A stretch of 64,000 nt of DNA from an uncultured Acidobacteriaceae bacterium (lineage in GTDB: Bacteria > Acidobacteriota > Terriglobia > Terriglobales > Acidobacteriaceae): positions 254,557 to 318,556 of the forward strand of contig CAWGDB010000007.1 in assembly GCA_963821295.1 (NCBI GenBank), in the 5' to 3' direction. The notes under the pieces are model-generated. The model ran no database searches, was not told the DNA's origin, and worked only from the letters and a program-made list of their open reading frames with translations. The stretch's first letter is position 1. Each line of letters begins with the position of its first letter. This document shows, piece by piece, positions 15,540 through 45,724 of the stretch. The position numbers were made by a program, and so were the translations under genes.

Positions 15540-16691
15540 TTGTCCGCCGCCCCAGTGATTCCGCCGACTGTTCGCAAGACCGCGCTGAACGCGGTCCATC
15601 GCCAGATGGGCGCGAAAATGGTTGAGTTCAACGGCTGGGATATGCCGGTCGAATATCCTGCGTCCATCGGATGCGGCATCGTTAACGAGCACATGGCCGT
15701 CCGCACCGGCGTCGGAATTTTTGACGTCAGTCACATGGGTGACATTCGGCTCGCCGGCCCCGGCGCCCTCGCCGCTGTGCAGCATATCTCGATGAATGAC
15801 GCCTCACGCCTCGCCATCGGCCAGGCGCAATATTCCGCGCTGCTTTATCCCGAAGGAACGTTTGTGGACGACGTCATCGTTCACCGCCTGGGCGAAGATG
15901 AATACCTGCTCGTGATCAACGCCGGCACGCGCGAAAAAGATTTCAACTGGGTGCGGGACAATACGCGCCAGTTCGATTGCAAGGTCGAACATCTCTCCGA
16001 CGATTTCACCCAGATTGCGATTCAGGGCCCGAAGGGCGTGAACCTGCTGCAGAAACTCACCGACGCCGATCTGAGCGCGGTGAAATTCTATTGGGTGACG
16101 CGCGGAACCTTATGTGGCCTGAAGAATATCCTGATGGGCCGCACCGGCTACACCGCCGAAGATGGCTTCGAAGTTTATATCCCGTCCGATGAAGCCACCA
16201 GCGCCCGCGTCTGGTACGCGATTCTCGATGCGGGCAAAGAGTTTGGCGTTGTCCCCTGCGGATTGGGTGCGCGCAACACGCTTCGCCTCGAAGGCAAACT
16301 GCCGCTCTACGGACACGAAATCTCCGACACGATCAACGTCTGGGAAGCGGGCCTCGACCGCTGGTGCAAAATGGAAAAGCCGGAGTTCATCGGACGCGCA
16401 GCACTGGAGAAAGCTCGCAGTGAAGGCTTGAAGCGTACGCTAGTCGGCCTTGAAATGATTGATCGCGGCATCGCCCGCGACGGCTATAAAGTTCTTGACG
16501 ATAGTGGCCGCGAAATCGGCTACGTCACCAGTGGATCGCCCGCGCCGTTCCTGAAAAAGAATATCGCGCTCGCCTATGTGCCGCCCGCGCACGCCGCGCT
16601 TGGAGCGACAGTGAGAGTTGACATCCGCGGACAAGGCGTAAAGGCGCAAGTCGTGCCGACGCCGTTTTACAAGCGTCCAAAGAAAGTTTGA
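15540..16691 (+). CDS. gcvT: glycine cleavage system aminomethyltransferase (T protein)
   Basis: TTG start. Motifs: HRQMGAKMVEFNGWDMPVEY, GIFDVSHMG, and a C-terminal barrel ending FYKRPKK. Confidence 0.9.
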   Translation: MSAAPVIPPTVRKTALNAVHRQMGAKMVEFNGWDMPVEYPASIGCGIVNEHMAVRTGVGIFDVSHMGDIRLAGPGALAAVQHISMNDASRLAIGQAQYSALLYPEGTFVDDVIVHRLGEDEYLLVINAGTREKDFNWVRDNTRQFDCKVEHLSDDFTQIAIQGPKGVNLLQKLTDADLSAVKFYWVTRGTLCGLKNILMGRTGYTAEDGFEVYIPSDEATSARVWYAILDAGKEFGVVPCGLGARNTLRLEGKLPLYGHEISDTINVWEAGLDRWCKMEKPEFIGRAALEKARSEGLKRTLVGLEMIDRGIARDGYKVLDDSGREIGYVTSGSPAPFLKKNIALAYVPPAHAALGATVRVDIRGQGVKAQVVPTPFYKRPKKV

Positions 16692-16693
16692 CC

Positions 16694-16731
16694 GTAGCGC
16701 CGGCATTTTGCCGCCGGGACGGCGGCGCTAC
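16694..16731. repeat. GC-rich REP-like hairpin (GTAGCGCCG...CGGCGCTAC)
   Basis: Perfect 9-bp stem, 16694..16702 with 16723..16731. An alternative inner stem pairs GCCGCC with GGCGGC. The opening GTAGCGC(C/G)GGCAT is shared with the element at 26181..26204. Confidence 0.5.
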
Positions 16732-16776
16732 CAAGATCGAAGCGCTACGAAGATCCAAGTCAGGAGCCATAATCGA

Positions 16777-17157
16777 ATGTCATATCCGGCCGACCGCAAA
16801 TATACGAAAGAACATGAATGGATCTCCACCGATGGCAAAATCGGCATCACCGCCCATGCCCAGGATTCTCTGGGAGACATCGTTTTCGTGGAACTCCCCA
16901 AGGTGGGCGCCGAACTTTCCGCGGGAAAGACATTTGGCACAGTTGAATCAGTCAAGGCCGTTTCGGATTTGTATGCTCCCGCCTCCGGAACCGTGACCGA
17001 AGTGAATGGCGAACTGGCCACCGCTCCCGAAAAAGTCAACAAAGACGCCCACGCCGCCTGGATGGTCAAGATCGCGATCAAAGATCCGGCTCAACTGAAC
17101 GCTCTGCTTTCGGCCGCCGACTACGAAAAATTTGTAAGCGAAGAGGCCGGACACTGA
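16777..17157 (+). CDS. gcvH: glycine cleavage system H protein (lipoyl carrier)
   Basis: MSYPADRKYTKEHEWI start and lipoyl-lysine motif GTVESVKAVSDLYAPASGTV. The ATG at 16777 is preferred over the listed 16708. Confidence 0.9.
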   Translation: MSYPADRKYTKEHEWISTDGKIGITAHAQDSLGDIVFVELPKVGAELSAGKTFGTVESVKAVSDLYAPASGTVTEVNGELATAPEKVNKDAHAAWMVKIAIKDPAQLNALLSAADYEKFVSEEAGH

Positions 17158-17161
17158 AAGG

Positions 17162-17272
17162 CATTGCAGAAGTTAGAAGTCAGATTGAAGAAGTAAAAGC
17201 CTGCGCTTTCAGCCGCAGCGGTGGGATCGAGGGCCTTTACTTCTGCAATTTGACTTCTGACTTCTGCAATTG
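17162..17272. repeat. long imperfect palindromic repeat element (copy B)
   Basis: The arms at 17162..17201 and 17232..17272 are near-perfect reverse complements (CATTGCAGAAGTTAGAAGTCAGATTGAAGAAGTAAAAGCC / GGCCTTTACTTCTGCAATTTGACTTCTGACTTCTGCAATTG). The loop is about 30 nt. The element sits between gcvH and gcvPA. Confidence 0.65.
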
Positions 17273-17349
17273 TGACGCGCCTCACGTCGTTCCGTTCCTC
17301 AACGTGCCACAATCGAAGCGACGGCTGCCGACATCAAATTAGGGTTCTT

Positions 17350-18723
17350 ATGAGATATCTTCCCAAATCTCCCTCCGATCGCGAAGCCATGCTGAAGGCG
17401 ATCGGGATCCGTTCCGTGGACGATCTTTTCTCGCCCATCCCCCCGCAATTTCGCGTGACGCGCGATCTGGCCATCCACCGCCAAATGGCGGAGTCCGAGA
17501 TTGTCGACTGGTTCAAGCAGCGCGCGCAGGAAAACGGGGAGGGCTACACCAGCTTCCTCGGCGCGGGAGCGTACTTCCACTACCGGCCGGTTGTGATCGA
17601 CGCCCTCGTGCAGCGCGGCGAATTTCTCACCTCGTATACGCCCTACCAGGCCGAGTTCGCGCAGGGAACGTTGCAGGCCATCTTCGAATTTCAAACCATG
17701 ATCGCCGACCTCACCGGTATGGACCTCGCGAATGCCTCCATGTATGACGGTTCGACGGGCGCGGCCGAAGCCGTGATGATGGCCGTCCGCATCACCGGCA
17801 AGCGCGGAGCGGTGGTGGCGCGGAGCCTGCATCCCGAATACCACGAAGTCATCCGCACCTACGCGACTCACCAGAGCATTCCGTTGTCGTCGATCGATTA
17901 CACCGACTCGGGACGAATCGACCTGAAAGCGCTCGAAGCAGCCATCGGCAACGACACCGCGTGCGTGCTCATTCAGTCGCCAAATTTCTTTGGGACTATC
18001 GAGGATGTGGACGCGGTTGCCGAAATCGCCCACAAACACGGAGCGTTGCTGATCGTTTCGATCGCCGAGGCTGTGTCGCTCGGCATCGTCGAACCGCCAC
18101 GCTCTGCCGACATCGTCGCCATGGAGGCGCAATCGTTCGGCGTTCCTCTAGGTTTCGGAGGGCCATACTGCGGAGTTCTCGCGACCAAAGAAAAATTCGT
18201 GCGCCAGATGCCGGGCCGTCTCGCCGGCCAAACCGTCGACAAGAATGGCAAGCGCGGATTCGTCCTCACCCTCGCCACCCGCGAGCAGCATATCCGGCGC
18301 GAGAAGGCGACCTCCAACATCTGCACCAACCAGGCGCTGGTCGCCCTGATGGTGAACATCTTCATGACCGTCTACGGCAAAGTCGGACTCAAAGAGCTGG
18401 CAAAACAAAACCTGGCGAAGACCGCATATGCGGCCGGCCAGTTCTCGAAGCACGCCAAGGTCCTGTTCGCGGGCGCGCCCCGCTTCAATGAGTTTGTGGT
18501 TGAGTCGAGCGAAGATCCCTACGCGATCAACTCCCGCCTGCTCGGCCACAAAATTGTCGGAGGCCTGCCGCTCAAAAAGTTCTATCCCGAACTCGGCCAC
18601 GCCGCCCTGTGGTGCTGTACCGAACTGACCACGCGTTCGATGATCGACACCGCCGTCGGCCTCGTCGCCGACAGCGAACGCGCTGTACGAAGTATGAAGG
18701 AAGTCGAAGAAGTGACGCGATGA
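17350..18723 (+). CDS. gcvPA: glycine dehydrogenase (decarboxylating) subunit 1
   Basis: [19 protein letters not shown] start, [23 protein letters not shown], and [24 protein letters not shown] at 17350. Confidence 0.9.
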
Positions 18724-18727
18724 ACCA

Positions 18728-18985
18728 GTGGCAAGCGGCAGGGATTGGACGCTATTCATGCCCGATATGCATACAGTTCTAAGGCCGCCATATATTTTCT
18801 TGGTCCTTGGGTGCATCTCCATGTCCGTCGGTGTAATTTCGACGTGTTCCGGAGAAACGTGGGCACGCTATGGTCGTGTGATCCGCCGTGACAAAGAACC
18901 GAAGCAGTTTTGGGAGGACGTCGTAGCCTCTTATCTCATTGGTGTTTGTTTCATTGGCTACTTCTTGTATAAGGTTTCAAACTGA
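18728..18985 (+). CDS. small hypothetical two-TM protein inserted between gcvPA and gcvPB
   Basis: 85-aa ORF (GTG 18728; alternative ATGs at 18758 and 18767). Hydrophobic segments: YIFLVLGCISMSVGVISTC and VVASYLIGVCFIGYFLYKV. By eye it is AT-richer than the flanking genes. Confidence 0.4.
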   Translation: MASGRDWTLFMPDMHTVLRPPYIFLVLGCISMSVGVISTCSGETWARYGRVIRRDKEPKQFWEDVVASYLIGVCFIGYFLYKVSN

Positions 18986-19011
18986 GCAGTCCAATTGATT
19001 TGCCAATAACT

Positions 19012-20502
19012 ATGAAACACATCACTCGCAAAGCCACGCGTCACATCAGCCAGAACGAAGGCCTGATCTTCGAGAAGTCCTCGCCCGGCAAAGCCGCCTG
19101 GAAACTTCCGCCGCTCGATGTCCCCGAAGTCGACACGGCGAAACTCCTCGGCAAACACGAGCGCCAGGACATGGGCTCCCTGCCCGAAGTCAGCGAGATC
19201 GAAATCATCCGCCACTTCACGCGCCTTTCCACCTGGAATTACGCCATCGATCTCGGCATGTATCCGCTCGGCTCCTGCACCATGAAGTACAACCCGCGCG
19301 TCAACGAATTCGTCTCGCGCATCGAAGGCCTCGCCAACGGACATCCCTACCAGCCCGAAAAGGTCTCGCAGGGCGCGATGCGCATCATGAAGACGCTGAG
19401 CGATTGCCTGCTTGAAATCACCGGCATGGATGCGATCACTCTTCAACCCGCTGCCGGCGCCCACGGAGAACTGACCGGCCTTCTGATGGTGCGCGCCTAC
19501 CATCACGCGAAAGGGCGTCCGCGCAAGAAGATTCTGATTCCCGATTCCGCTCACGGCACCAATCCCGCGACGGCCGCCATGGTTGGCTACGCGGTCGAAA
19601 ATTTGAAGTCGGACAGCCGCGGCATGGTCGACGTAGCCGCGCTCGAATCGCAGATGAACGAAGACGTGGCCGCGCTCATGGTCACCAATCCCAACACGCT
19701 CGGCGTCTTCGAGCAGGAGATTCACAAGATCGCCGAACTCATGCACGCCAAAGGCGGCCTCCTCTACATGGATGGCGCGAACATGAACGCGCTCGTCGGC
19801 AAGACTCGCCCCGGCGATTTCGGCGTGGATCTCATGCACCTGAACCTGCATAAAACTTTTTCCACGCCGCATGGTGGAGGCGGTCCCGGCTCCGGCCCGG
19901 TCGCGGTGAAAAAAATTCTCGAGCCCTTCCTGCCCACGCCCGTCCTGATCACCAAGCCCGAGGGCACGCTCGGCTTCGAATACAACCGTCCGCAATCAGT
20001 GGGCCGCGTGCGGGCCTTCTACGGAAACTTCGGAATGTTCATCCGCGCGCTCGCCTACATTTTTGCCAACGGCCCCGACGGTCTTCGCCAGACCACCGAA
20101 GATGCCGTGCTCAACGCCAACTACATCCGCAAAGGTTTGGAGGGCGTATACGACCTGCCGTACGACACGCCCTCCATGCACGAAGTTGTCTTCAGCGATA
20201 AAGTGCAGTCGAAAAAAGGCGTCCGCACCATGGACCTGGCCAAACGCTTGATCGACTACGGATTCCACCCCTACACAACGGCGTTTCCATTGATCGTCGC
20301 AGGCGCGCTCATGATCGAGCCAACCGAGAGCGAGCCAAAAGAAGAACTCGATCTGTTCATCGAGGCCATGAAGTCGATTGCGGAAGAGGTGGAAGAAGAT
20401 CCGCAGTTCGTGCTCGATGCTCCGCACAACACGCGTATCTCACGCCTCGATGAGACCGCCGCTGCAAGGAAGCCGATCCTGCGCTGGAAGCCAGAAGCCT
20501 AG
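19012..20502 (+). CDS. gcvPB: glycine dehydrogenase (decarboxylating) subunit 2
   Basis: EVSEIEIIRHFTRLS, and the PLP-lysine region HLNLHKTFSTPHGGGGPG. The ATG at 19012 is preferred over the TTG at 19000. Confidence 0.9.
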   Translation: MKHITRKATRHISQNEGLIFEKSSPGKAAWKLPPLDVPEVDTAKLLGKHERQDMGSLPEVSEIEIIRHFTRLSTWNYAIDLGMYPLGSCTMKYNPRVNEFVSRIEGLANGHPYQPEKVSQGAMRIMKTLSDCLLEITGMDAITLQPAAGAHGELTGLLMVRAYHHAKGRPRKKILIPDSAHGTNPATAAMVGYAVENLKSDSRGMVDVAALESQMNEDVAALMVTNPNTLGVFEQEIHKIAELMHAKGGLLYMDGANMNALVGKTRPGDFGVDLMHLNLHKTFSTPHGGGGPGSGPVAVKKILEPFLPTPVLITKPEGTLGFEYNRPQSVGRVRAFYGNFGMFIRALAYIFANGPDGLRQTTEDAVLNANYIRKGLEGVYDLPYDTPSMHEVVFSDKVQSKKGVRTMDLAKRLIDYGFHPYTTAFPLIVAGALMIEPTESEPKEELDLFIEAMKSIAEEVEEDPQFVLDAPHNTRISRLDETAAARKPILRWKPEA

Positions 20503-20546: not shown

Positions 20547-20586
20547 GGACGGGCGCCTCGCCCGTCCAAGCCGAGCGAAGCTCGGC
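20547..20586. terminator. tandem perfect GC-rich hairpins (REP-like), likely bidirectional terminator between gcvPB and the GGDEF gene
   Basis: GGACGGGCG-CCT-CGCCCGTCC (9-bp stem) is followed by GCCGAGC-GAA-GCTCGGC (7-bp stem). The first hairpin recurs at 25397..25415, and a variant occurs at 26152..26166. Confidence 0.55.
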
Positions 20587-23271: not shown

Positions 23272-23312
23272 AAAAAAAGCCCCGGGAGTGTCCGGCTCCC
23301 GGGGGCTGTTTG
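23272..23312. terminator. bidirectional rho-independent terminator
   Basis: AAAAAAAG-CCCCGGGAG-tgtccgg-CTCCCGGGG-GCTGTTT. The 9-bp GC stem is flanked by an A-run on one side and a T-rich tract on the other. It lies between the convergent NHL and NrfD-like genes. Confidence 0.65.
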
Positions 23313-23329: not shown

Positions 23330-24541
23330 TTATGCTTCCGCCGCAGCGCCTTTGATCGTCCACCGTAACTGCGGCGGCAACTTTGCTGTATTCTTCGGCA
23401 AAATATCCAGATAGATTACCGCGTACCGGAAGATCATCACCGCGGCCGTCAGCACCATCAGCGTGGCCGCAAACTCAGTCCACTGCGGCACGTAGTAGAC
23501 TCCCGAGCTACGCTGCAACCCGGTCACCGAGACATCCACCCGGTTCGTCATGAAGCCGCCCACGATCATGGCGCAGGTCCAGTACAGCTTTTGCGGATCG
23601 TTGCGCACCTTCTCTATGCTCAGCAGCACGACCGGCGCAATTACCAGTAGCGCGGCCTCCAGCCAGAAGGAGAGTGTCTCTTCCCGCCACATGAACATAT
23701 ACCGCAGCGCCTCGTTCCGCGACAGGTCGACCACGCGAAAGATCGCATAGATAGCCAGGAGTGGCGCGATCACCCGGCTCACTTCCGCCAGGATGCGCGG
23801 ATCGAGCTTCACATCCAGCGACCGGATCGAAAGATACAGCGCCATGATCGTGACCGCCAGGCCAGCCGGGATCGCCGACAGGTAGAAAAGCGTCGTGAGG
23901 TTCGGGCTGTACCACAGTGGATCAAGCTTGCCCTCGGTCAGCAAGTAAAGGCCGCCGAGAAAGGACTGGTGCAGTGAGGAGAGAACCACGCCGATCAGCA
24001 CCAGCGCGATTAATACTTCGTGGTGCCACTTCAGGTACCAGTCGCGCAATCTCACAAATGGAATTTTCTCCACCAGCGCCGGTGAGAATTCCAGCGCCAG
24101 CACGGTCGAGTAGAGCATCACGCACCAGGAAACCTCGAACAGCATCGAGTGCCGGTTCCACATGACAATTGGGTGCCAGATGCGCCACGGCAATCCCAGT
24201 TCGTACATCATGCCGGCAATCACGCTCGAGTATCCGAGGAAAGACACCAGAACCGCCGCGCGCAGTACTGGCCGGTAGCGTTCGAAGCCGAGCAGATAGA
24301 CAGCTGCCGCAATCGCGAATCCTCCCGCCGAGAGTCCCACACCGCACAGCGTGCCGATTCCGACCCACAGCCCCCAGGGTTGCGCGTCAGTTAGATGCGT
24401 TGCCCGAGCGAAGCCCAGTGCGAACCGGGCATAAGTGGCATAAAGTCCAGCCGCGAAGATCAGCGCCACAATCACGCGCCACAATGTCACTGTGGGAAGA
24501 GTCACCTTCGAAAAATCAAATTTGGGCAGGTTGCGAGTCAT
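23330..24541 (-). CDS. NrfD/PsrC-family polytopic quinone-interacting membrane subunit
   Basis: 403 aa, about 10 hydrophobic helices. Size and helix pattern match the polysulfide reductase NrfD family. It lies 3 nt downstream of the Fe-S subunit gene. Confidence 0.75.
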   Translation of the reverse strand: MTRNLPKFDFSKVTLPTVTLWRVIVALIFAAGLYATYARFALGFARATHLTDAQPWGLWVGIGTLCGVGLSAGGFAIAAAVYLLGFERYRPVLRAAVLVSFLGYSSVIAGMMYELGLPWRIWHPIVMWNRHSMLFEVSWCVMLYSTVLALEFSPALVEKIPFVRLRDWYLKWHHEVLIALVLIGVVLSSLHQSFLGGLYLLTEGKLDPLWYSPNLTTLFYLSAIPAGLAVTIMALYLSIRSLDVKLDPRILAEVSRVIAPLLAIYAIFRVVDLSRNEALRYMFMWREETLSFWLEAALLVIAPVVLLSIEKVRNDPQKLYWTCAMIVGGFMTNRVDVSVTGLQRSSGVYYVPQWTEFAATLMVLTAAVMIFRYAVIYLDILPKNTAKLPPQLRWTIKGAAAEA

Positions 24542-24544
24542 AAC

Positions 24545-25372
24545 CTAGCTCCTTTCCGTATCGTTATTGTTAACGTTGTCGCTGTCGTCGTTGCGGCCAA
24601 CGCCGCGGCCATTGTCGTGGTTCGAGACGCGCGGCCTAGGGTATGCAATCGTGCCTTCCGCCCGAGCGACCGCCTCTCGCCGTTGAGTGATCCAGTACAA
24701 GCCCGAGAGCAGACTGCCGCCTACCAGCACCACCGTGGGCACATCGCCCAGAGCATTGGCGGTCAGCACTGGCATCGGCTGTTTCGGAGGCGCCGCGAAC
24801 CCCAACTTCTCAAACGGCACATCGGAGATGAAGAACACCGAAGTGCCGCCAGCTTCTTCGCTCCCGTAGATGTGCTTGACATAGCCGCCGCCCAGAATCC
24901 GGCGCTCCGCCTCGTCAAGAATGTCGTCGCGCCATCCGACGGTAGACGCTCCCGTAGGACAAGCTTCCACGCACGCCGGAGGCTTTCCCGCCATCTGCCG
25001 CGCCGCGCACATGTCGCATTTCTTGACGAATGGCACCAGCTTGTTCCACTCGTAGCGCGGCACGCTGAACGGGCAGGCCACCAGGCAGTATCGGCATCCG
25101 ATGCATTTGCTCGCGTCGTAGGTCACCGGTCCGAGTGCTGTTTTCTTCAGTGCGCCCACCAGGCAGGCCGACGCGCAGGCCGGCTGCTGGCAGTGATTAC
25201 ACAGTTTGCGGACGAACTTCTCGCCATGCTCTTCGATCACCGTTAAGTTGGTGGGCGAGAGCTTCGGCTCGCTCTCTGCCGGAAAGCCGTGTACCTGCTT
25301 GCAAGCCTGTTCGCAGCTCCGGCATCCGATGCATTTGGTGATGTCCACCAGGATTGCTTTTGTGCGTTCCAT
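24545..25372 (-). CDS. 4x[4Fe-4S] ferredoxin-type subunit (NrfC/HybA/DsrO-like) with C-terminal TM anchor, no Tat signal
   Basis: Four Cys clusters: CIGCRSCEQAC, CNHCQQPACASAC, CIGCRYCLVACP and CDMCAARQMAGKPPACVEACP. The first cluster begins at residue 14, which leaves no room for a signal peptide. A TM helix VPTVVLVGGSLLSGLYWI lies near the C-terminus. Confidence 0.85.
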   Translation of the reverse strand: MERTKAILVDITKCIGCRSCEQACKQVHGFPAESEPKLSPTNLTVIEEHGEKFVRKLCNHCQQPACASACLVGALKKTALGPVTYDASKCIGCRYCLVACPFSVPRYEWNKLVPFVKKCDMCAARQMAGKPPACVEACPTGASTVGWRDDILDEAERRILGGGYVKHIYGSEEAGGTSVFFISDVPFEKLGFAAPPKQPMPVLTANALGDVPTVVLVGGSLLSGLYWITQRREAVARAEGTIAYPRPRVSNHDNGRGVGRNDDSDNVNNNDTERS

Positions 25373-25396
25373 AATTTCCTCTTTCTCGTGTGGAGC

Positions 25397-25415
25397 GACG
25401 GGCGCCTCGCCCGTC
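25397..25415. repeat. REP-like hairpin inside the operon spacer
   Basis: GACGGGCG-CCT-CGCCCGTC, the same core as 20547..20567. It lies in the 52-nt gap between the GcvH-like gene and the Fe-S gene. Confidence 0.55.
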
Positions 25416-25424
25416 CAGTTCTAC

Positions 25425-26093
25425 TTATGCCAGGAAGAACTCACGCAGCAGGCTTTGCCGAGTCTCGGGTGCAACCCGCGTCAGCAGGCCCCGTTCCGGC
25501 AGACCGCCATCGGCGGCCATGGCCTGCGACATCTCCGGAACCATGCTCGTCAGCCGCGTCAGGCAGTTCTGCATCCAGGGAGCGACCATCGGTCCTTGCA
25601 CCAGGTTCTTCTGGTTCACCTGCAGGTCAGGAGATTTCAACAGCGCGATCCACCCTTTTTCGTAGGGATCGCGCACAATGGTCTTCGGATCTTCGACCGC
25701 ATCGTGGTTGACGGCCATGATTACGCCTTCGACGGGAGAAACCATGTCGATCGCGGTCTTGCCGCAGTGGATCGTCATGATCTTCTGGCCCTGACGCACC
25801 CATCGGTTCTCGCCAATCACATCGATCCTGTCGATCTGCCCAATCAGGTTGGCAGCGAAGCTGTCGATTCCAATGCGCGCATCATTGGGGCTTTCTCTCA
25901 ACCCCCAGGTGTGCCCGGGATGAAACCAGTACCCCTGCGGTATCGCCAGACCGGCCGAGCCCTCCATCCTGGGAGTAGCGATCGGTCCCAGCGCCGGCTG
26001 CGGACGTGCGGCCAGTTCATAAACCTCCGGCGAGCGGAAATAACTGATCGTGATGATCACGAGAAACATCAGCAGGACAAAAAGAATAGACAT
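25425..26093 (-). CDS. membrane-anchored GcvH-like (lipoyl/biotinyl-attachment fold) protein
   Basis: N-terminal TM helix MSILFVLLMFLVIITISYF. A GcvH-like core follows: HPGHTWGL...ARIGIDSFAANLIGQIDRIDV...IHCGKTAIDMVSPVEGVIMAVN...DPYEKGWI. Its Lys aligns with the lipoyl-Lys of the bona fide gcvH at 16777 (ESVKAVSDLYAPASGTVTEVN). It also has a C-terminal extension of about 60 aa. Confidence 0.65.
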   Translation of the reverse strand: MSILFVLLMFLVIITISYFRSPEVYELAARPQPALGPIATPRMEGSAGLAIPQGYWFHPGHTWGLRESPNDARIGIDSFAANLIGQIDRIDVIGENRWVRQGQKIMTIHCGKTAIDMVSPVEGVIMAVNHDAVEDPKTIVRDPYEKGWIALLKSPDLQVNQKNLVQGPMVAPWMQNCLTRLTSMVPEMSQAMAADGGLPERGLLTRVAPETRQSLLREFFLA

Positions 26094-26142
26094 ATCGCTC
26101 CTCCTAAGTGCTCGGGGCTGTAGCGCAGCTCCGGAAATCGTC

Positions 26143-26204
26143 GTGTGGCTGCGGGCGACTCGCCCGTAAGGCGTGGCCGTGTAGCGCGGGCATTCTTGCC
26201 CGCG
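26143..26204. repeat. cluster of GC-rich REP-like hairpins
   Basis: TCGTGTGGCTGCGGGCGACTCGCCCGT is a variant of the 20541 and 25391 element. CGCGGGCA-TTCT-TGCCCGCG follows at 26185..26204 (8-bp stem). Confidence 0.45.
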
Positions 26205-26523
26205 TTTCCAGTGAGCGGCAGGATTCCGCTTTCCTCGTTCTCGCTCGCAGTCCCCGCGTTTGCATCGCCTGAATCACACTGTCTATGTGCACGCGCGTGC
26301 CAAACTTTTGAGCAGGGAAGAGCACCACAAGAATCATCAGCTTGGGAGGAAGTTCAACGAGTTAGCGGAGCGAGCGTTACGCTAGCCCCAGCAATTTGCT
26401 AATGCGTTCTGCGGACCGAAGGTAGGTACTGCATTTTGCAGTGGTCGCGTGCCGAGGGTGCAAACGGAGTAGAGACAGGGCTTGCCCGTCTCCGCTCTTG
26501 CTAGAATCGCGAGGGACCGAAAA

Positions 26524-34243: not shown

Positions 34244-35494
34244 TCATGCCAGCGCCGCGAGCAACCTGTCGATATCTTTCATATCATTGAACACAGAAGG
34301 TGATATCCGGATGTAGCGTTCGGAAACGCGTGCGTTGACGCCGGCTTTCTGAAGCCGCTGTCGCACCGTTTTGTGGTCCTTCACGGCGAAGGTTACGAGC
34401 GCCGAGGTCGATTCCGGCGGCGTTAGAGGCTGGAATCCAAGTCGCGGCATTTCTTCTTGCAGGCGCTTCAGCATGGGCTGCCGGTACGCCATGATATTTT
34501 CTGCGCCCAGTTTACGGATGTAAGGCAGGGATTGCGCCAGCACATGTGCGGCGCCGATTGCAGGCGTGCCGACTTCAAAATGTCCGGATGCGTTATTCTC
34601 AAGCGCGAATGAGTACGCTGCAGGGTTGGGCGGATCACCCGGAAGAAAATGCGATTCCATCGTGCTGGCCTGGTAGTAGCCGTATTGCGATCGCTGAACG
34701 ACACGGTCGAGCAGACCTTCCTTTACGAAAAGAAAGCCCAAGCCGAAATCGGCCATGAGCCATTTAAAACTGGAGCAGGCGCAGAAATCGACGCCGCTGG
34801 CGCGGACATCGATTGGAGTATTCCCAGCGGCCTGTACGATGTCGGCATACACATAGGCGTCGTGCGCGTGCGCAAGATCGCAGACTGCCTTCAAATCATG
34901 CTGAAAACCGTTGTGCATCGCCACCAGCGAAACTTCGATCAACTTGGTTCTTTTGTCGACTACGCGCTCCAGGTCTTTCAAGTCGATCCGCCAATCGCGC
35001 GGCATTACGACCCGGAGATCGAGGCCAAATCGTTGTTGAAGCGCCTGAAGATGCAAAAGCGCACCCTCAAAATGCAGCGCGTCGGTAACAACGTTGTCGG
35101 ACTTATAGTCAATGTCCAGCCCATTCACGATCAGATTCTCGCCGGTGCTGGTGTTCGGGACATAACTGATCTCCGATTCCTTGGCATTGATCAGCCCTGC
35201 AAATTCAGCTTTGATGTTGATCAGTTTCTTAGGCTGGGATACGACCTGCGGTTGGGAGCGAAAGTCCGCCCATTCGCGCAGCGCTGCCGCCGCCGCCACT
35301 GGCATCGGATGGGTATAGGCGCTGTTGATGTAGGACACGCCATCGGGAATCGCGAAATCCTGCTTCGCCGGCAGAGAAGGTGCTGTGTGAGTCGAGGAAG
35401 TTGCCGGCGAATTCGTGATGGAATTCAAGGGAGCTGCAATTCCGGCAGCTGCCAGAGTGCCGAGACCTGCCAGGATTTCGCGCCGGCTAATCAT
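34244..35494 (-). CDS. class V aminotransferase-fold PLP enzyme with twin-arginine (Tat) signal
   Basis: MISRREILAGLGTLAAAGIAAPL fits S-R-R-x-[FI]-L. The PLP-Lys region is FCACSSFKWLMADFGLGFLFV. The ATG at 35494 is preferred over 35536. Confidence 0.75.
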   Translation of the reverse strand: MISRREILAGLGTLAAAGIAAPLNSITNSPATSSTHTAPSLPAKQDFAIPDGVSYINSAYTHPMPVAAAAALREWADFRSQPQVVSQPKKLINIKAEFAGLINAKESEISYVPNTSTGENLIVNGLDIDYKSDNVVTDALHFEGALLHLQALQQRFGLDLRVVMPRDWRIDLKDLERVVDKRTKLIEVSLVAMHNGFQHDLKAVCDLAHAHDAYVYADIVQAAGNTPIDVRASGVDFCACSSFKWLMADFGLGFLFVKEGLLDRVVQRSQYGYYQASTMESHFLPGDPPNPAAYSFALENNASGHFEVGTPAIGAAHVLAQSLPYIRKLGAENIMAYRQPMLKRLQEEMPRLGFQPLTPPESTSALVTFAVKDHKTVRQRLQKAGVNARVSERYIRISPSVFNDMKDIDRLLAALA

Positions 35495-35581
35495 GAATGG
35501 TGTTCCTCGGTAACGTCGCCGAGTTTTTTTCGACAAGCATAATGATTTCGCATAATCGGTCTCCCTGCCAGCAGTTTTATT

Positions 35582-37156
35582 TCAGGGAGAATTATGGCCT
35601 GCCGTTACAAATGCCCGAACGTCGCGAGCCAGCATCTGACGCCCCTCAGTGCCAAGATAGGGCATGTGCCCGGAAGGATAGAGATGCATCTCCGTAGCAG
35701 CCATCGGGATGCGAGCGTGAGCGATGACATAGTCGGCTGAACCGAGCGGCGTGACCAGATCGTAATAGCCTTCCCCTACCATCAACCGTAAATGCGGATT
35801 GCGCCGCATGGCAATGCTAAGATCATCTGCGTAGTTAGTGTCGCCGCCCGCGCCCGGGCCACGGCCGTAATCCCATCGGCCATTGACCGCGCGAAAAGAG
35901 ATAGGCTCATAAGTCTCGTCAATTGACACCCCGAGCTCGTCGCGGGCATACATGTTGTAGCTGGCAACGAAGCCGGGGACGTATTGACCCATGGCCGGAT
36001 CGTCGGCCACAGGATCTTTGCCGTTTGGTGAGAGCGGAAGCGTATAGCGCGCGTCATAGAGCCCGACCTGCTCCCCGCGGTCTTTTAATATCTCCTGCGC
36101 GAACGCCGGCGCATGAATCCGCAAATCGTTCCGGCGAATGTAATCGGGCGAAAGACCGGTAAGCGCCGCCAGCCGAGCCGCGATCGCGTCCCGTTCAGCC
36201 GAGGGCAGATCGCTTCCTTTGTAGAGCGCCTTGAAATATTCATCGGCAGCGAACTTTTTGGCTTCCGCTACTTGGTTAGCCGCGGTGCAGCCAGCGGCTG
36301 CTTTGCCGTGATAGCACGCCGTAGCTGCGAGCGTTGGCAGCAGGTTGAGATACCCGCCGTCTTCTCCGGCCGAGCCTTTGAAGTCCATTGCCTGGCCCAG
36401 AAGAATGATCCCGTTTAGAGTCATCCCATCCATGTTGCCAGTCTCGGTAGGTCCGCCTGCCATTAGTCGCGAGACAACAGCAGCGCGAATTGTGCCATAA
36501 CTCTCCGCCACCAGATATTTCGGTGAGTTCCAACGCTCGTTTTCCCTTACCCAGCGTTCGATAAGCTCAACGGTCATCTTGGCGTCCTGCTGAGTGCCGT
36601 AGAATTCCTCAGGCTTGCCGTCGGGAAGGACGCGGCTGAAACCTGTTCCCGGTGGATCAATCAGCACGATGTCCGCAACATCGAGAGGGCTCTCTGTGTT
36701 ATCCACAATGCGAAAAGGCGGAACCGTTTCCGGCTTTACTACGTCAGTGAAGTCGATCCGGCGCGGTCCCAGAAAACCCATCTGCAGCCAAACCGATGAC
36801 GACCCCGGTCCGCCGTTGAAGGCGAATATCACGGGACGACTCGTTCCTTTTGGAACATCGGTGCGGATGTAGCTCGTCGTTAAGACGCTGGCGGTGCGCT
36901 TTCCCGCTGGATCTGTGGTGAAGTTTTCGGCCACAACTGCCTTGTAGCGTATCTGCTGTCCGCCGAAAATGCCCTGGTGGTTCGTCTCAAAACGTCGCGG
37001 TGGGGCAAGGGTCTTCTGGGCTCCTTCCACACCCGTGGACTTGAGAACCTCGGGAGGGACCGCCTGCGCTGCCATAACAGGGAAAACCAACAGGTTCAGG
37101 ATTATTCCCAGGTTCAGAAATATTCCAATGATCGAGCACATTATCGTGTGTCGCAT
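35582..37156 (-). CDS. S10-family serine carboxypeptidase paralogue A
   Basis: Signal peptide. Nucleophile motif YLVAESYGTIRAA. C-terminal His motif LYPSGHMPYL. Confidence 0.8.
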   Translation of the reverse strand: MRHTIMCSIIGIFLNLGIILNLLVFPVMAAQAVPPEVLKSTGVEGAQKTLAPPRRFETNHQGIFGGQQIRYKAVVAENFTTDPAGKRTASVLTTSYIRTDVPKGTSRPVIFAFNGGPGSSSVWLQMGFLGPRRIDFTDVVKPETVPPFRIVDNTESPLDVADIVLIDPPGTGFSRVLPDGKPEEFYGTQQDAKMTVELIERWVRENERWNSPKYLVAESYGTIRAAVVSRLMAGGPTETGNMDGMTLNGIILLGQAMDFKGSAGEDGGYLNLLPTLAATACYHGKAAAGCTAANQVAEAKKFAADEYFKALYKGSDLPSAERDAIAARLAALTGLSPDYIRRNDLRIHAPAFAQEILKDRGEQVGLYDARYTLPLSPNGKDPVADDPAMGQYVPGFVASYNMYARDELGVSIDETYEPISFRAVNGRWDYGRGPGAGGDTNYADDLSIAMRRNPHLRLMVGEGYYDLVTPLGSADYVIAHARIPMAATEMHLYPSGHMPYLGTEGRQMLARDVRAFVTAGHNSP

Positions 37157-38706
37157 CCCGTGTCTCCTCCCCGTTTCTCACCCATTCGCGATGCAACGGC
37201 CTTACTGGTAGATGTAACAAGTGTCCGTACATCACCGGTAAATTTCCTGGCGCTGCGCTCTACGGTGTAGGCCATGTGCCCGCCCTCATAAAAAGAAAAA
37301 GTGGCTCGGCCTTCCGGCCAACCGGACTGCCGCACAGCATATTCCGCAGCTCCAACTGTCGTTTGCGTGTCGTGATAACCATTGCCGATCAAGACGTGGA
37401 AACGTGGATTAGCTTTCATCATCATCATGAGGCGGTCGCTATACGGCCAATCGGCAAAAGGGCCGCTGCCGCCCCATTTCCATCCATCCAATTCCGCCCC
37501 TTTAAAAAGGACATATTCGTCAGTCCAGTCGATGCCCAGATCGTTGCGAACATACTCTCCGAAAAGACGCCGGAATGCCGGCATGATCTTGTCCGATGGA
37601 TCTGCTGCCAGCCCTTTGCTTGTCATTGGGGCAACGTAGCGGCCGTCGTTGCGACCGAGTAGCAGCCCGCGATCTTTAAGTAGCTCACCGCGATATTCTT
37701 CCTTACTGATGCGAAGGCCATGCTCGCGGTAATACGCCGCAGGAATACCGCTCAGTTCCTCAAGCCGCTTGGCTACTCGATCCCGTTCCGCTGGTTCGAT
37801 GGAATCCCCTTTGAAAAGCGCCGTCAGATAGTCGGTCTGCGCAAAGCCCCATGCTTCACGCTCGAACTCTTCAAATGTCTTGTCTCCACGGCCAACCTTC
37901 TGGTGATACCAGCCCAGTGCCGCCAGGGTCGGCAGCGAGACGGCATAGCTGATAATGTTCTGCGGCCGCTGGCGGTATTCGATGATGTTGATTGCCTGCC
38001 CCATCAGCACGACGCCTTGCAGCAGGATTGGCTTTGGCAATTCGGCAAGTTGGGCCGCAACTTCCGCGGCGCGAATGGTGCCGTAACTCTCGCCAAGCAC
38101 GTAAGCCGGTGACGACAGGCGGCCATGCTGCGTCAGCCACGCGGAGATAAATGCCGTTACTTGCTGCCCATCCGCGGCGACGGAGAAATAACTCTCCGGC
38201 GCAGTGCCAGGCAGTACGCGGCTGTAGCCCGTCGAAGCTGGATCGATAAATACAAGATCGGTGGCGTCCAGCGGCGAATAAACGTTGTCCACTAATCGGT
38301 AAGTATTCGGATCCGCGGTCAGATCGTCGGGGACAGCTACGCGCTTCGGTCCCATCACTCCGATGTGCAGCCACAACGACGCTGTAATCGGTCCTCCGTT
38401 GAAAACAAACATTACCGGTCGTGCTGCCGCGTTCCCCAGATCATCGGCGGTATAGGCGAAGCTCACCAGTCGCGCCGCAGGTCTGCCCTTCATGTCGGCA
38501 ACATCGATCGCCTCCACCGTCGCCGTGTATCGGATTTCCTCGCCGTTGAAGGTTCCGGTGTGGTGAGTAATTACCGTCGGGTGAGAGACAACCTGCGCAG
38601 CTGCCGGAAGGGCCGTTGTTTGCCCATGCGCAGTTTGGCCTATGGCGGGAGATAATACGAATATTGCTACCAGCAATGCAATAAAACCGGTAGTTCGTCT
38701 GCCCAT
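37141..38706 (-). CDS. S10-family serine carboxypeptidase paralogue B
   Basis: The internal ATG at 38706 gives the signal peptide MGRRTTGFIALLVAIFVLSPAIG. Motifs: YVLGESYGTIRAA and FYEGGHMAYT. Confidence 0.8.
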   Translation of the reverse strand: MGRRTTGFIALLVAIFVLSPAIGQTAHGQTTALPAAAQVVSHPTVITHHTGTFNGEEIRYTATVEAIDVADMKGRPAARLVSFAYTADDLGNAAARPVMFVFNGGPITASLWLHIGVMGPKRVAVPDDLTADPNTYRLVDNVYSPLDATDLVFIDPASTGYSRVLPGTAPESYFSVAADGQQVTAFISAWLTQHGRLSSPAYVLGESYGTIRAAEVAAQLAELPKPILLQGVVLMGQAINIIEYRQRPQNIISYAVSLPTLAALGWYHQKVGRGDKTFEEFEREAWGFAQTDYLTALFKGDSIEPAERDRVAKRLEELSGIPAAYYREHGLRISKEEYRGELLKDRGLLLGRNDGRYVAPMTSKGLAADPSDKIMPAFRRLFGEYVRNDLGIDWTDEYVLFKGAELDGWKWGGSGPFADWPYSDRLMMMMKANPRFHVLIGNGYHDTQTTVGAAEYAVRQSGWPEGRATFSFYEGGHMAYTVERSARKFTGDVRTLVTSTSKAVASRMGEKRGGDTGCDTR

Positions 38707-38873
38707 CTTCGATACGCTATCCAGCTGGCCGTTCCCTCCTGATTTCATTAGTCGCATTTCGGAGTTAGCGTCCGCATGACGCTGACACACATCCCGACCT
38801 CCAGCATGCTCCTGTATGTATCGCCTTTCGAAAGACCCTGGCTGCCTTAAGTCATAACAAACGCCCGCCCGGC

Positions 38874-41800
38874 TCAAAAATTAAGTTTCAATGCGAGTTG
38901 GCCGACGCGCGGGGCCACAGTGGTGCTGGTGATTTGACCGAATGCCGGCGCGCCATCGCTGAAGCTGGTGTCTGGATTGGCAAATTGTGTGCTGTTAAAG
39001 GCGTTAAAAAATTCGGCCCGGAACTCAAGAGCCATCCGCTCTGTGAGCGGAGTTTTCTTTCTCAGCGAAAGGTCAACGTTGTGCTGCGATGGTCCGCGCA
39101 TCAGTCCCGGCTTCGTGTTCCCGAAAGCCGTTCCTCCATCTGGGCTGATCATCGGCGGTTCGGTGAAACAATTGGTGTTGAAATACTCGTCCCGGCGACT
39201 CTGCACCGAACCACTCAGGCCGAGGTTTCCGTTGCATCCAGTGTTAGTAAGGTCGAGATACGCAAAGTCACTCGACGTGCCGAAGAGATTGTTCGAGTTG
39301 GTATTGAGGAATGTGAGCGGCGTCCCGGATTGGAGCGTAATAACCGCAGAGATGGCCCACCCGCTCGAAACTTTGCCAGCAAAGCCCGCTCCGTGGTTGA
39401 AACCGGGCAGTTCATAGATAGGACTCACAATCAATCGGTGCCGACGGCTGAAATTAGCTTCGCCGTACCCTGCGTAAAGATTGTTCTGATCTCCGATTGT
39501 TCCCCCTCCAAAGGTGCTCCCAACAACGCTTGCCGCTCCGGTTGACATGGTCTTCGACCACGTATATGCCGACAAAAACTGCAATCCGTGGCTGAGATTC
39601 TTTTTGAGAGTGACTTCCATCGCATTGAAGTTCGACCGCCCTTCCGAGCCCTGTCCCAGGAAGTTGGCTGCGTCCCAGCCTTCGTATGGAACTCTCAGGG
39701 TAAGGTTCGACAAAGTGCTGGTGGTTTCTCCGCGGATAGGATTCGTGGGAGTAGCCAGCCCCGCCTGGTTGATGGAGTGTGAGTAGATCAAATGGTTGGC
39801 GTTCGATCCGACATAGCCCACTTGCAGAGCCAGGGTTGGAGTAATTGCGGTTTGCATATTCAGAGCGAACTCCTGCGTTATCCCAGGCCGGATGGTTTGC
39901 TGCGTGGCAATAGAGCTGAGGTCGCTGTATGGCGAATAGGGCGCGAAGAATGGAAACGCGCTAAGCGGTGGAATCGGTTCCTGGAAGGGCTGCGCCCAGG
40001 AGGCAGCGCCGTTGAGAGGAGGTATAAAAATACCAAGATCGGCCCACGGCAGGCCCGGGATGGATTGGAACTGGCTGTTGCCGGTGACCGCCGAATAGTA
40101 GATTCCGTATCCGCCGCGCAGCACTACGCGGTCACTGTCAGGCAGCACACTGTAGGCGAAGCCCAGTCTCGGGCCCCACGTATTGTTTCCGCTCCCCGGC
40201 ACGAATCCGTTAATCCCGGATTTCACGACGCCCGCTGGAACAGGATAGGTCCAGTCCGCCGGCACCACGTATCCCGCCAGACTGCCCGTCACGGGAGGAT
40301 TGGGATCGATCAAAGCGGGGTTAATGTTGGTGTCCCGGCCTCCGAGATTTGTAAATGGCGGCAGCCACTCCCAGCGCAGCCCAAGGTTCAGCGTCAGCTT
40401 GGAAGTGACGCGCCAGTCGTCCTGACCATAAGCGGAGATTTCCCACGTGCGTCCATGTCCGGCCAGCACACCCAGCAATTCCACCGAGTCCAGCACATTG
40501 CTAAAACCATTCGGCGGAAAAACCGGAATACCGGCGGTTCCGTTCTGCGCTCCGTTCATTCCGAGGAGAAAATCGGGCCAGCTTGGGAAGGTCACCTGGC
40601 CGTAGTATTGTTCCCCGCTGTTCACCAGATAATTTCTGACAACGCCACCTCCAAATCGAAAACTATGATGACCGCGCACCCAGGCGATGTCGTCTTCAAA
40701 ATTAAAAAGGTCCTGCGCGTTCGGCGAATAAATACCGGCATTGAAGTTATCGGAGCCGGAAATCGTAATCGAGGGTTGGCTGTTGTTCTGGGTGGAACTG
40801 TCTACCCCGATTCCCGAGAACGTAAGCGGCGAATCCGGAGTAATACGCGCGCTGATCCGGTCGTAGCCCACCCGCACCTGGTTGAACAGGTTCGGCGTGA
40901 TCATGTAGTTATCGCTCATCGACGCCACCAGATAGCTTGATTTGTTGGTGGAGGGCGTGCCGGGCAAATTCGCTCCATTCCCTGTGCCAAAACCGAATGG
41001 ATCGATCCCCTTGCTGGGAGCCGTGAAGAACCGGCCCTGAATCGTGTTCCTTGGCGACTGGATGTAATCGAAATTCGCCATGACTTGGTCTTCCCGGAAT
41101 TGGGAGGGGGACGAGAGCGAGACCAGATTATTCGTGGGGTTCGCCGTTGGAAACAGAAATTGCCCATTGGGCAATTTCTCCTGCAGAAGTGTCAGCGCAA
41201 CCGGATTGATATTGTAGGGAAAGACATCTCCGGGGGAGTTCGTGGGATCGATCGCCGGTCCAAAGCCCGGCGGTCCGAAGATGTATTGCAGCCCCTGCTG
41301 TCCAGCGAAGAGCGTGGCAATCGACGCCGCAGAACGGTCATTGGTCGTAAGCGGCGAGAAGAACGTTACACGGTTAAATACTCCATTCACCTGGCGCGTC
41401 CCCTGATAGGAGGCGAAGAAGAAGAGCTTGTTTTTTATAATCGGCCCGCCGAATGTTCCCCCAAATTGGTTCTGCTTCAGTTCCGGGCGCGGCGCTCCGT
41501 TTAGATTCTGGAAAAAGTCATTAGCATTGAGAACGTCGTTGCGCCAAAACTCAAACACATTGCCGTGAAATGCGTTCGAACCCGTCTTCGTGACCAGATT
41601 CACATTCGCCCCGGCGTCCCGCCCGTATTCCGCGTCATACATCCCGGTTTGTACTTTGAATTCCTGAATCGTGTCAGGATTCGGGATCGGCACGCCCGCG
41701 CCCGACCCATCGTAGTCATTGACGTCTACCCCATCCATTCGAAAATTAATATCACTCGCTCGCGCGCCGTTGATGTTTTCGCCCCCGCCTTCATTAAACG

Positions 41801-42386: not shown

Positions 42387-42675
42387 GACTACCTCCCAGG
42401 TGTTCTACTTCCGCGTCGTTCAAAGTTGACTTTTTGTAATGTCACCCGAAATTCAATTCAAGGAACAATTGCCAGTGAAATCACCTGCTAACGTACTTAG
42501 AATCAACTGAAGATCGGGATGGGAAGCGAGTCTATTCAACAAATAATCCAATGTCAAGGCGCGAAATTTAAAATATTATTTGACTGCTGAGCGCGTGCAG
42601 CAGTAAGGTCTCACGCATGTCGCTCACGTTCGTTGCTGGTGATGAAGTCAGTGATTTCACGAAAAGGAGCGTTCG

Positions 42676-45704: not shown

Positions 45705-45724
45705 TTTGCCGCAGGTCTCGTAGA

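Follow-up and report, generated by a model that had tools for sequence, protein, structure and literature searches.

Organisation and conservation of the operon

The window, a stretch of 64,000 nucleotides from an uncultured Acidobacteriaceae bacterium (assembly GCA_963821295.1, contig CAWGDB010000007.1, positions 254,557 to 318,556), carries on its minus strand an operon of three genes that is the subject of the present analysis. In the order of transcription, the genes encode a protein resembling the H-protein of the glycine cleavage system (the GcvH-like protein), an iron-sulphur (Fe-S) protein and an NrfD-like membrane protein (Table 1). The original prediction, made from the nucleotide sequence alone, had described three co-oriented genes with spacers of 52 and 3 nt and a strong terminator, and all these features were confirmed, the terminator at 23280-23304.

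Relatives of the GcvH-like protein were found in 277 species genomes in a scan that included one genome per species. Synteny was counted in the best 80 of the 277 genomes, which represent distinct species and are nearly all labelled Acidobacteriota. The gene order GcvH-like/Fe-S/NrfD was kept in 78 of the 80 loci, the remaining two being interrupted by contig ends, and the arrangement is thus not due to chance. Molybdopterin, Ni-Fe and cytochrome genes were not present among the scanned open reading frames (ORFs) of the window, and none of them was a conserved neighbour in the 80 related loci. The absence of an adjacent catalytic subunit, noted already in the original prediction, thus applies both to the window and to 78 orthologous loci.

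Table 1. Features of the three-gene operon and its borders, with positions in the window.
Feature	Position	Strand	Remarks
GcvH-like gene (222 aa)	25425-26093	minus	ORF
N-terminal transmembrane helix of the GcvH-like protein, residues 2-20 (MSILFVLLMFLVIITISYF-R)	26034-26090	minus	near-invariant in orthologues, predicted N-out/C-in
GcvH-fold (barrel-sandwich) domain, residues 43-153	25635-25967	minus	invariant FHPGHTW (H58, H61, W63)
K112 codon	25758-25760	minus	aligned with the lipoyl-Lys of true H-proteins, unconserved
Helical C-terminal extension of the GcvH-like protein, residues 157-219, family-specific	25437-25625	minus	conserved W173, D195-G196-G197, terminal EFFL
GcvH-like/Fe-S gene spacer, 52 nt	25373-25424	minus	REP-like hairpin 25398-25414 and Shine-Dalgarno AGAGGA of the Fe-S gene
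Fe-S gene (275 aa)	24545-25372	minus	ORF
C-terminal anchor helix of the Fe-S protein, residues 211-228 (VPTVVLVGGSLLSGLYWI)	24689-24742	minus	followed by conserved T-Q-R-R
Fe-S/NrfD-like gene spacer, 3 nt	24542-24544	minus	
NrfD-like gene (403 aa)	23330-24541	minus	ORF
Intrinsic terminator at the operon end	23280-23304	minus	9-pair GC-rich hairpin and T7 tail; bidirectional
Non-coding region 5' of the operon	26094-26523		REP-like copy 26151-26167; palindrome GCACGCGCGTGC 26289-26300

The Fe-S and NrfD-like subunits

The second and third genes had been assigned to a module of the NrfC/NrfD type. This assignment was correct and can be stated more precisely, the Fe-S plus haem-less membrane module being HybA/HybB- or HmcB/HmcC-like. 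The Fe-S protein includes 16 Cys arranged in four ferredoxin-type motifs (4x[4Fe-4S], Fer4_11 type) between C14 and C138, all of which were kept in 60-61 of 61 orthologues. Its NCBIfam matches were to HmcB (8.6e-74; 248.4 bits, cut-off 420) and HybA (1.5e-52; 178.7 bits, cut-off 263), and the closest solved structure was that of FdnH (1kqf_B, 6e-29). An in-frame TAG 51 nt upstream makes the ORF maximal, so that no twin-arginine translocation (Tat) or Sec signal can be added to the protein. Approximately 60 orthologues begin at the same M-x3-4-AILVD, and a signal was present in none of them. A mis-called start hiding a Tat signal was rejected on the grounds of the in-frame stop and this shared start. 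The earlier description of the protein, with four Cys clusters starting at residue 14, no Tat or Sec signal and a C-terminal transmembrane anchor, was accurate in every part, and the lack of a signal extends to all orthologues.

The NrfD-like protein matched Pfam NrfD with an E-value of 1.4e-13 (51.6 bits against a gathering score of 25.8), and its best NCBIfam matches were HmcC (1.5e-76; 258 bits against 550) and HybB (7e-64; 216.6 bits against 450). It contains ten hydrophobic segments and could be aligned from end to end with Escherichia coli HybB at 27% identity. Single-sequence search found no solved structure for the protein, and profile search gave only ActC of alternative complex III (2e-07). 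The residues R94, Y104, E151 and H191-Q192-S193 were invariant or near-invariant in 72 orthologues, and R94, Y104, E151 and H191 are the equivalents of HybB R89, Y99, E148 and H184. These four HybB residues belong to the proposed proton path on the N side. According to the review PMC8076601, their replacement impairs hydrogen oxidation, and HybB Asp58 is given as a residue of the quinone site. That the trio might be what is left of a degenerating hydrogenase or Hmc operon was also considered and rejected, since all cofactor ligands and channel residues are kept across many species.

A manual count of Lys and Arg in the NrfD-like protein gave 20 on the segments of the cytoplasmic (N) side against 8 on the loops of the periplasmic (P) side. 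In the NrfD-like protein of a KSB1 relative (L083 5949-7520), helix 10 is followed by a K/R-rich stretch, an eleventh helix and a tri-haem cytochrome c7-like domain (CTGCH, CGKCH, CEFCH). Because of the charge bias, and because the cytochrome domain of the KSB1 protein must be periplasmic, both termini of the window's protein are placed on the cytoplasmic side. The protein is a ten-helix, haem-less membrane subunit of the HybB/HmcC kind with N-in/C-in orientation. In KSB1 the gene of the NrfD-cytochrome fusion adjoins genes for a Tat-less Fe-S subunit and three GcvH-like proteins.

The GcvH-like subunit

The GcvH-like protein matched Pfam GCV_H (2e-18) and scored under both curated NCBIfam GcvH cut-offs (68.9 bits against 117 for NF002270 and 58 against 115.85 for TIGR00527). 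The AlphaFold2 model of the protein had a pLDDT of 86 and a pTM of 0.77; it rests on an alignment of 122 sequences, a model made from ten sequences having been unusable (pLDDT 43). The transmembrane helix is followed in the model by a disordered linker, the GcvH fold and four added helices, which make up the C-terminal extension (Table 1). In the Foldseek search the best match was the H-protein of T. thermophilus (1onl; target-normalised TM-score 0.90, rmsd 1.6 Å), and no solved structure was matched by the C-terminal extension. Model and search together agree with the single N-terminal transmembrane helix and the GcvH fold that had been predicted for the protein. Among the orthologues the columns M1-L11, Y18, F19 and R20 were invariant at the N-terminus, and G75, P120, G123 and W148 were conserved in addition to those residues given as conserved or invariant in Table 1.

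Several related clusters encode fusions of a receiver (REC) domain with GCV_H, and one of the fusion proteins (L088 4413-5582) consists of an N-terminal helix of the same kind, then REC and then the GcvH-like domain. Other GcvH-like paralogues are soluble, signal-less and Cys-rich. Since some copies are fused to receiver domains and others are signal-less soluble proteins, the GcvH-like domain is placed in the cytoplasm. The window's protein accordingly spans the membrane once and has its GcvH fold on the cytoplasmic side, the N-out/C-in orientation of its helix being predicted from the L088 fusion. The REC-GcvH fusions were detected at L088 3536-5582 and likewise in L089, L124, L137 and L167. 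This architecture, with GcvH in the position of an output domain, appears to be undescribed.

As had been predicted, K112 occupies in the alignment the position of the lipoyl-Lys of the window's authentic gcvH (16708-17157; K of ESVKA), and the same was seen with solved H-proteins including 1onl. In 63 orthologues the column was nevertheless occupied by Gly in 29, Asp in 13, Lys in eight, Glu in eight, Ser in four and Asn in one, and when the wider family was clustered at 50% identity, Lys was present in six of the 111 representatives. The column directly after K112 was Arg in 40 and Lys in 31 of the same 111 representatives. Arg cannot be lipoylated. Genes for lipoate ligase, LipA/LipB, sHdr and the T, P and L proteins were not conserved neighbours in the 80 loci, so that the nearby lipoate ligases suggested as a check on the prediction were not found as a conserved feature. 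Because the aligned Lys was present in so few of the orthologues and representatives, the GcvH-like protein is, as far as lipoylation can be judged from sequence, not a lipoyl carrier. Neither is it, on the same grounds, regarded as a redox carrier: the Lys is unconserved, and in most members of the family the membrane separates the domain from the Fe-S wire, so that the GcvH fold could not be the redox substrate.

These results bear directly on the function that was originally proposed for the trio, according to which a cytoplasm-facing Fe-S subunit would oxidise or reduce a (dihydro)lipoyl arm on K112 and thus provide a quinone-linked membrane alternative to the soluble E3/L-protein reaction. 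The alignment of K112 in the window sequence, the intact GcvH fold, the signal-less Fe-S protein and the cytoplasmic position of the GcvH-like domain would all fit such a swinging arm. The proposal is nonetheless scarcely credible when the family is considered: Lys is confined to eight of 63 orthologues and six of 111 representatives, Gly, Asp and Glu are common in its place, and Arg and Lys are interchangeable in the adjacent column. Furthermore, the scores are far under the GcvH equivalog cut-offs, no lipoate ligase, LipA/LipB or sHdr gene is conserved nearby, and most Fe-S subunits of the family are exported by Tat and so lie across the membrane from the GcvH-like domain. At the family level the alignment already refutes the lipoyl-arm model through the unconserved Lys. 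The lipoyl chemistry, and with it the membrane alternative to E3/L-protein, was therefore wrongly proposed; the anatomy of the trio was well described.

In comparison to GcvH, LbpA and GcvH-L, the GcvH-like protein has kept the barrel-sandwich fold and the N-terminal HxW and SP.xG motifs, but it differs from them in having no conserved lipoyl-Lys, in its membrane anchor and in the C-terminal extension of 65 residues. It also differs from GcvH and LbpA in its genomic partners, which are Fe-S/NrfD and two-component genes instead of genes for T/P/L proteins, sHdr or lipoate ligases. The N-terminal barrel-sandwich domains of NqrA and RnfC resemble it in being neither lipoylated nor biotinylated and in being structural parts of respiratory membrane complexes. 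Weak NQRA_N matches were detected in two relatives (E = 0.005 and 0.08). There is, however, no significant sequence relationship with NqrA or RnfC, and the domains of these proteins belong to large soluble subunits and not to single-pass proteins.

The wider gene-cluster family

The GcvH-like protein has 1159 homologous protein clusters. When 1.84 billion representative proteins were searched with a profile, 4879 matched, true GcvH included, and many of the matching proteins were full-length, 210-245 aa long and identical in architecture. In metagenomes, more than 550 hits were found, a number that is a lower bound. Two N-terminal types were distinguished in the family: the proteins of one type, including that of the window, begin with the helix at once, and those of the other start with MEGFKYVDIFATKGIEYL. 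Weak precomputed matches to PF28260 (DVU_0533) were present on the N-terminal helix of the MEGFKYVDIFATKGIEYL-type proteins only. DVU_0533 is the locus tag of HmcD in the hmc operon of D. vulgaris. A literature search on HmcD and NhcD returned unrelated acronyms only.

More distant clusters include one to three GcvH-like genes together with the Fe-S and NrfD genes, and a HAMP histidine kinase, a sigma-54 response regulator and an archaemetzincin-type M54 peptidase very often occur with them. The context was counted in 39 loci from metagenomes, each 5 kb or longer, in which the Fe-S gene was present in 33, NrfD in 35, the kinase in 23, the sigma-54 regulator in 26, the M54 peptidase in 21, and a gene for a small cytochrome c with three to five haems in 14. 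CxxCH motifs were found in 24 of 27 long kinases, and in three inspected closely they lie ahead of the kinase core. The kinases L085 12020-13687, L088 1599-3491 and L088 9835-11442 have a conserved pair of CxxCH and C-x4-CH before the core, and the kinases of the clusters are probably c-type haem redox sensors of the periplasm. In the clusters of L085 and L088 the M54 archaemetzincin-like gene always comes after the sigma-54 regulator.

The pair of kinase and sigma-54 regulator was present beside the trio in about half of the acidobacterial loci. A second, paralogous and fuller cluster occurs in Terriglobales (L084, L085), in L021 and L029 beside the trio itself. In these two loci (L021 85-5563 and L029 1-5349), the paralogous Fe-S/NrfD/kinase/regulator/M54 cluster adjoins the trio on the opposite strand. 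The trio is thus one branch of a large, multi-phylum and apparently undescribed family of gene clusters tied to two-component signalling. The family is large, with thousands of protein clusters and, in the acidobacterial branch by itself, relatives in 277 species genomes, and it is common in Acidobacteriota of soil and peat. Its members are routinely mis-annotated, either as 'glycine cleavage system protein H' or as 'formate dehydrogenase iron-sulfur subunit', and their re-annotation would prevent false inference of glycine or formate metabolism in studies based on metagenome-assembled genomes.

Two records in a metatranscriptome supplement (PMC10564751) are given here as leads only, for possible members of the trio family. 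One is an acidobacterial 'hydB' listed as an orphan, for which 'no accessory proteins identified' is noted, and the other a cluster with an NrfD-cytochrome c7 fusion that was up-regulated in anoxia.

Membrane side of the Fe-S subunit

In the wider family, 37 Fe-S subunits carry textbook Tat signals (e.g. MDRRSFMKSLGVIGAS) and are for this reason placed in the periplasm. In a neighbour-joining tree, the Tat-less Fe-S proteins formed one clade that was sister to all Tat-bearing proteins and included the window's clade, the second acidobacterial paralogue, KSB1 (L083) and L082. As the Tat-less proteins form a single clade, the absence of the signal is ancient and stable, and not an artefact of annotation. 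No Tat-bearing partner was conserved in the clusters examined. Folded Fe-S proteins cross the membrane via Tat only, and the signal-less FdnH of formate dehydrogenase-N is exported together with FdnG.

More Lys and Arg residues were present after than before the C-terminal anchor helix both in the Tat-less proteins (2.7 vs 1.6) and in the Tat-bearing proteins (3.3 vs 1.3), and the RR is conserved. In the NrfD-like proteins, conservation of the P-side loops was 0.70 vs 0.48 for the N-side loops in the window's set and 0.54 vs 0.33 in the Tat-bearing set, the P-side loops being as conserved as the helices in both. The original prediction had the Fe-S subunit facing the cytoplasm. The missing signal on which it was based stands and keeps this position plausible, but the charge pattern around the anchor, the canonical orientation of NrfD with conserved P-side loops and the precedent of FdnH form soft evidence against it. 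Between the two sides, the cytoplasmic position of the window's Fe-S subunit is given only a marginal preference over the periplasmic one.

If the Fe-S subunit of the Tat-less clade is a cytoplasmic protein anchored by its C-terminus, a soluble donor such as ferredoxin or another Fe-S protein or flavoprotein encoded elsewhere would deliver electrons to a quinone in the NrfD-like subunit, and the GcvH-fold domain would be a docking or adaptor domain on the same side. This explanation is regarded as tentative. That Tat is the sole route for folded Fe-S proteins is established knowledge, and the signal is absent from about 60 orthologues, in a clade covering at least Acidobacteriota and KSB1 and in clusters with no conserved Tat-bearing partner. 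The small cytochrome c genes of the Tat-bearing clusters are also missing from the acidobacterial Tat-less clusters examined, and the Asp of the quinone site is replaced by Gly. A cytoplasm-facing NrfD complex has moreover been drawn for SoeABC (PMC8076601). The anchor, however, has the charge pattern of Tat-exported homologues, with more K/R after than before the helix and the conserved RR, and so predicts the Fe-S domain to be outside. Likewise, the NrfD-like subunit has the canonical orientation and P-side loops conserved like its helices, as in the Tat-bearing set, a quinone site on the P side would be too distant from a cluster on the N side, and the KSB1 member of the same Tat-less clade has a periplasmic cytochrome fused to its NrfD.

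Alternatively, the Fe-S subunit may be exported by hitch-hiking on a Tat-bearing partner encoded elsewhere, in the manner of FdnH and FdnG. The complex would then be an oxidoreductase between quinol and a periplasmic acceptor (cytochrome c), or work in the reverse direction, like the Tat-bearing relatives, Nhc, Hmc and Qrc. The Fe-S proteins of the sister clade are Tat-exported and have a C-terminal anchor of identical type, the P-side loops of NrfD are conserved, the nearest solved homologue, FdnH, is itself signal-less, and the KSB1 fusion includes a periplasmic cytochrome. Export of this kind is still rather unlikely, as the conserved clusters include no candidate for the Tat partner, the known hitch-hiking pairs are co-encoded, and the signal was lost long ago, its absence being stable across phyla.

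Comparison with known systems

The closest known systems are the HybA/HybB anchor and HmcB/HmcC(/HmcD). Membership in each complete system nevertheless failed, because hydrogenase, cytochrome c and HmcE/HmcF genes and the Tat signal are missing and the scores are under the cut-offs. The whole mature length of HybA of E. coli hydrogenase-2 could be aligned with the Fe-S protein, including the four Cys motifs and the C-terminal anchor with the RR after it, and the window's protein starts where mature HybA starts. With HybB, the NrfD-like protein shares the end-to-end alignment, the ten helices and the equivalents of R89, Y99, E148 and H184. The differences are that HybA has an RR Tat signal of 36 residues where the window's Fe-S protein has none, that a GcvH-fold subunit is added, that HybB Asp58 is replaced by Gly, and that the scores do not reach the equivalog cut-offs. 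Also HybO, HybC and the maturation genes of hydrogenase-2 (HybOCAB) were found neither among the ORFs scanned in the window nor in the 80 loci.

HmcB and HmcC of the Desulfovibrio Hmc complex, to which the Nhc complex is related, gave the best NCBIfam matches for both subunits, and these matches were stronger in the Tat-bearing relatives (332 and 420 bits). Like Hmc and Nhc, the relatives, although not the window, have adjacent genes for multihaem cytochromes c, and the helix of their single-pass subunit has a weak precomputed DVU_0533 match, found in the other N-terminal subtype only, which may be a lead to HmcD. The window differs from Hmc and Nhc in having no cytochrome c gene, which is also absent from the acidobacterial loci, no HmcE/HmcF and no Tat signal. 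The single-pass subunit of the trio carries a 200-residue cytoplasmic GcvH-fold domain, which neither Hmc nor Nhc is known to have.

SoeABC, a sulfite dehydrogenase of the NrfD type, is similar in that its signal-less peripheral subunits are held on an NrfD-type anchor and predicted to face the cytoplasm (PMC8076601). In contrast to the window and the 80 loci, where none was found, Soe has a molybdopterin catalytic subunit. SoeC has eight helices, SoeABC is not known to include a GcvH-like subunit, and SoeB lacks a known C-terminal anchor. Geobacter CbcBA/BccR was considered as a further relative and dismissed, since this sigma-54-regulated quinone oxidoreductase is analogous only and not homologous. 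About fifteen types of NrfD-type complexes have been listed (PMC8076601), none with a GcvH-fold subunit.

Proposed function of the complex

The explanation leaned towards here, with modest confidence, is that the trio is a quinone module of the HybAB/HmcBC type combined with a cytoplasmic, non-redox GcvH-fold subunit of accessory or regulatory function. The products of the one operon would form a small respiratory-type membrane complex in the lineage of HybA/HybB and HmcB/HmcC. In such a complex the Fe-S subunit would be a wire of four [4Fe-4S] clusters held by its C-terminal anchor helix, the NrfD-type subunit would bind quinone and carry a proton half-channel, and the Fe-S wire would exchange electrons with the quinone pool. 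The outer partner would in most relatives be a small periplasmic multihaem cytochrome c, and in the acidobacterial branch one that is not encoded nearby. The GcvH-like domain would be a structural or regulatory accessory on the N side of the NrfD-like subunit and may gate its state or report it. The REC fusions and the constant company of the kinase, the sigma-54 regulator and the M54 peptidase suggest that the GcvH-fold domain may be an effector, which would either mediate the action of signalling on the complex or allow the complex to report its own state.

Several points weigh against this explanation. At the position of HybB Asp58 (G63, codon 24352-24354), the window's clade has Gly in 69 of 72 orthologues and the paralogous and KSB1 clusters (L083-L085) have Asp, and quinone binding by the NrfD-like subunit is itself assumed from homology. 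For the Fe-S subunit the two sides of the membrane are almost evenly balanced, and its electron partner would depend on the side. A regulatory role is proposed from domain fusions and gene neighbourhood, and the window and its closest relatives have no kinase or regulator gene adjacent to the trio. The literature search found no paper linking NrfD-type modules with GcvH-like proteins, and the whole family is known from its sequences only.

The same neighbourhood would also suit a complex that is chiefly a sensor, in which the redox state of the quinone pool or of a periplasmic carrier would be transmitted through the GcvH-like domain to the neighbouring kinase and sigma-54 regulator. The genes are tightly linked with those of the kinase, the sigma-54 regulator and the REC-GcvH fusions across phyla, and no catalytic subunit is present. 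The kinases, however, already have a periplasmic CxxCH sensor domain of their own, the strict conservation of the HybB proton-channel residues fits an energy-coupled enzyme, and neither the window nor the closest relatives have a kinase or regulator adjoining the trio, all of which makes a primarily sensory function improbable.

The quinone module with an accessory GcvH-fold subunit can be carried further to a more specific scheme. In this scheme the GcvH fold, anchored by one helix or fused to receiver domains, would have been recruited as a cytoplasmic effector that docks on the N side of the NrfD module, the CxxCH kinase would tune the complex post-translationally, as in a respiratory valve under two-component control, and the Fe-S wire would have moved to the cytoplasm in the Tat-less clade. 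Taken as a whole the scheme is unlikely; if true, it would represent a new class of cytoplasmic-donor:quinone oxidoreductase without a classical catalytic subunit. NrfD-type modules are a main bacterial route by which redox enzymes are linked to the quinone pool. The family offers two tractable cases, one of a cofactor-carrier fold turned into a non-catalytic accessory or signalling domain, and the other of an exported Fe-S subunit that has lost its Tat signal and is yet under strong selection.

Borders and surroundings of the operon

The terminator at the operon end also serves a convergent NHL-repeat gene. A GC-rich palindrome resembling repetitive extragenic palindromic (REP) elements, ACGGGCGNCTCGCCCGT, was present in three copies in the window, against 0.15 expected. 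One of the copies (20549-20565) lies outside the operon region, one is inside the 52-nt spacer and one is in the non-coding stretch upstream of the operon (Table 1), and this last copy agrees with the earlier description of the stretch as repeat-bearing. The hairpin in the spacer has no T-run on the minus strand, and no minus-strand terminator was called there. As the T-run is missing from the coding strand, the hairpin should not terminate transcription, and the copy between the first and second genes could be an mRNA-stabilising hairpin.

The palindrome GCACGCGCGTGC is situated within a sigma-54-like TGGCAC..TGCA string upstream of the operon. It is part of a motif TTGCAC-N5-GTGCA (TGGCACGCGCGTGCA in the window, 26287-26306; minus strand AAAAGTTTGGCACGCGCGTGCACA), which is palindromic and resembles both the sigma-54 -24/-12 element and an NtrC-type binding site. 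The loci L021, L027, L039, L050, L052, L055, L061, L062 and L079 have a motif of the same type (TTGCAC-N5-GTGCA or TGGCAC..TGCA) 40-165 nt upstream of their first gene. Calling it a sigma-54 promoter was rejected, since the window's GG-N10-GC element is too short by one base, TG often stands in place of the -24 GG, and the motif is a palindrome. For these reasons it is kept as a putative regulatory site without promoter assignment.

A complete authentic glycine-cleavage operon is present on the plus strand at 15540-20502, including gcvT (15540-16691), gcvH (16708-17157), gcvPA (17272-18723) and gcvPB (19000-20502), of which gcvH carries the ESVKA lipoyl motif. The gcv operon was close to the GcvH-like gene in the closest relatives only. 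A functional link between the trio and this gcvT-H-P operon, 8 kb away, was rejected because of the confinement of their proximity to these relatives, and the nearness is probably coincidental.

In another part of the window (34244-48844), four paralogous genes of the S10-type serine carboxypeptidase-like kind (35582-37156, 37141-38877, 45744-47288 and 47351-48844) flank a large gene for a CarboxypepD_reg/OMP beta-barrel transporter (38874-42386) and an amidohydrolase gene. This region looks like a peptide-utilisation locus.

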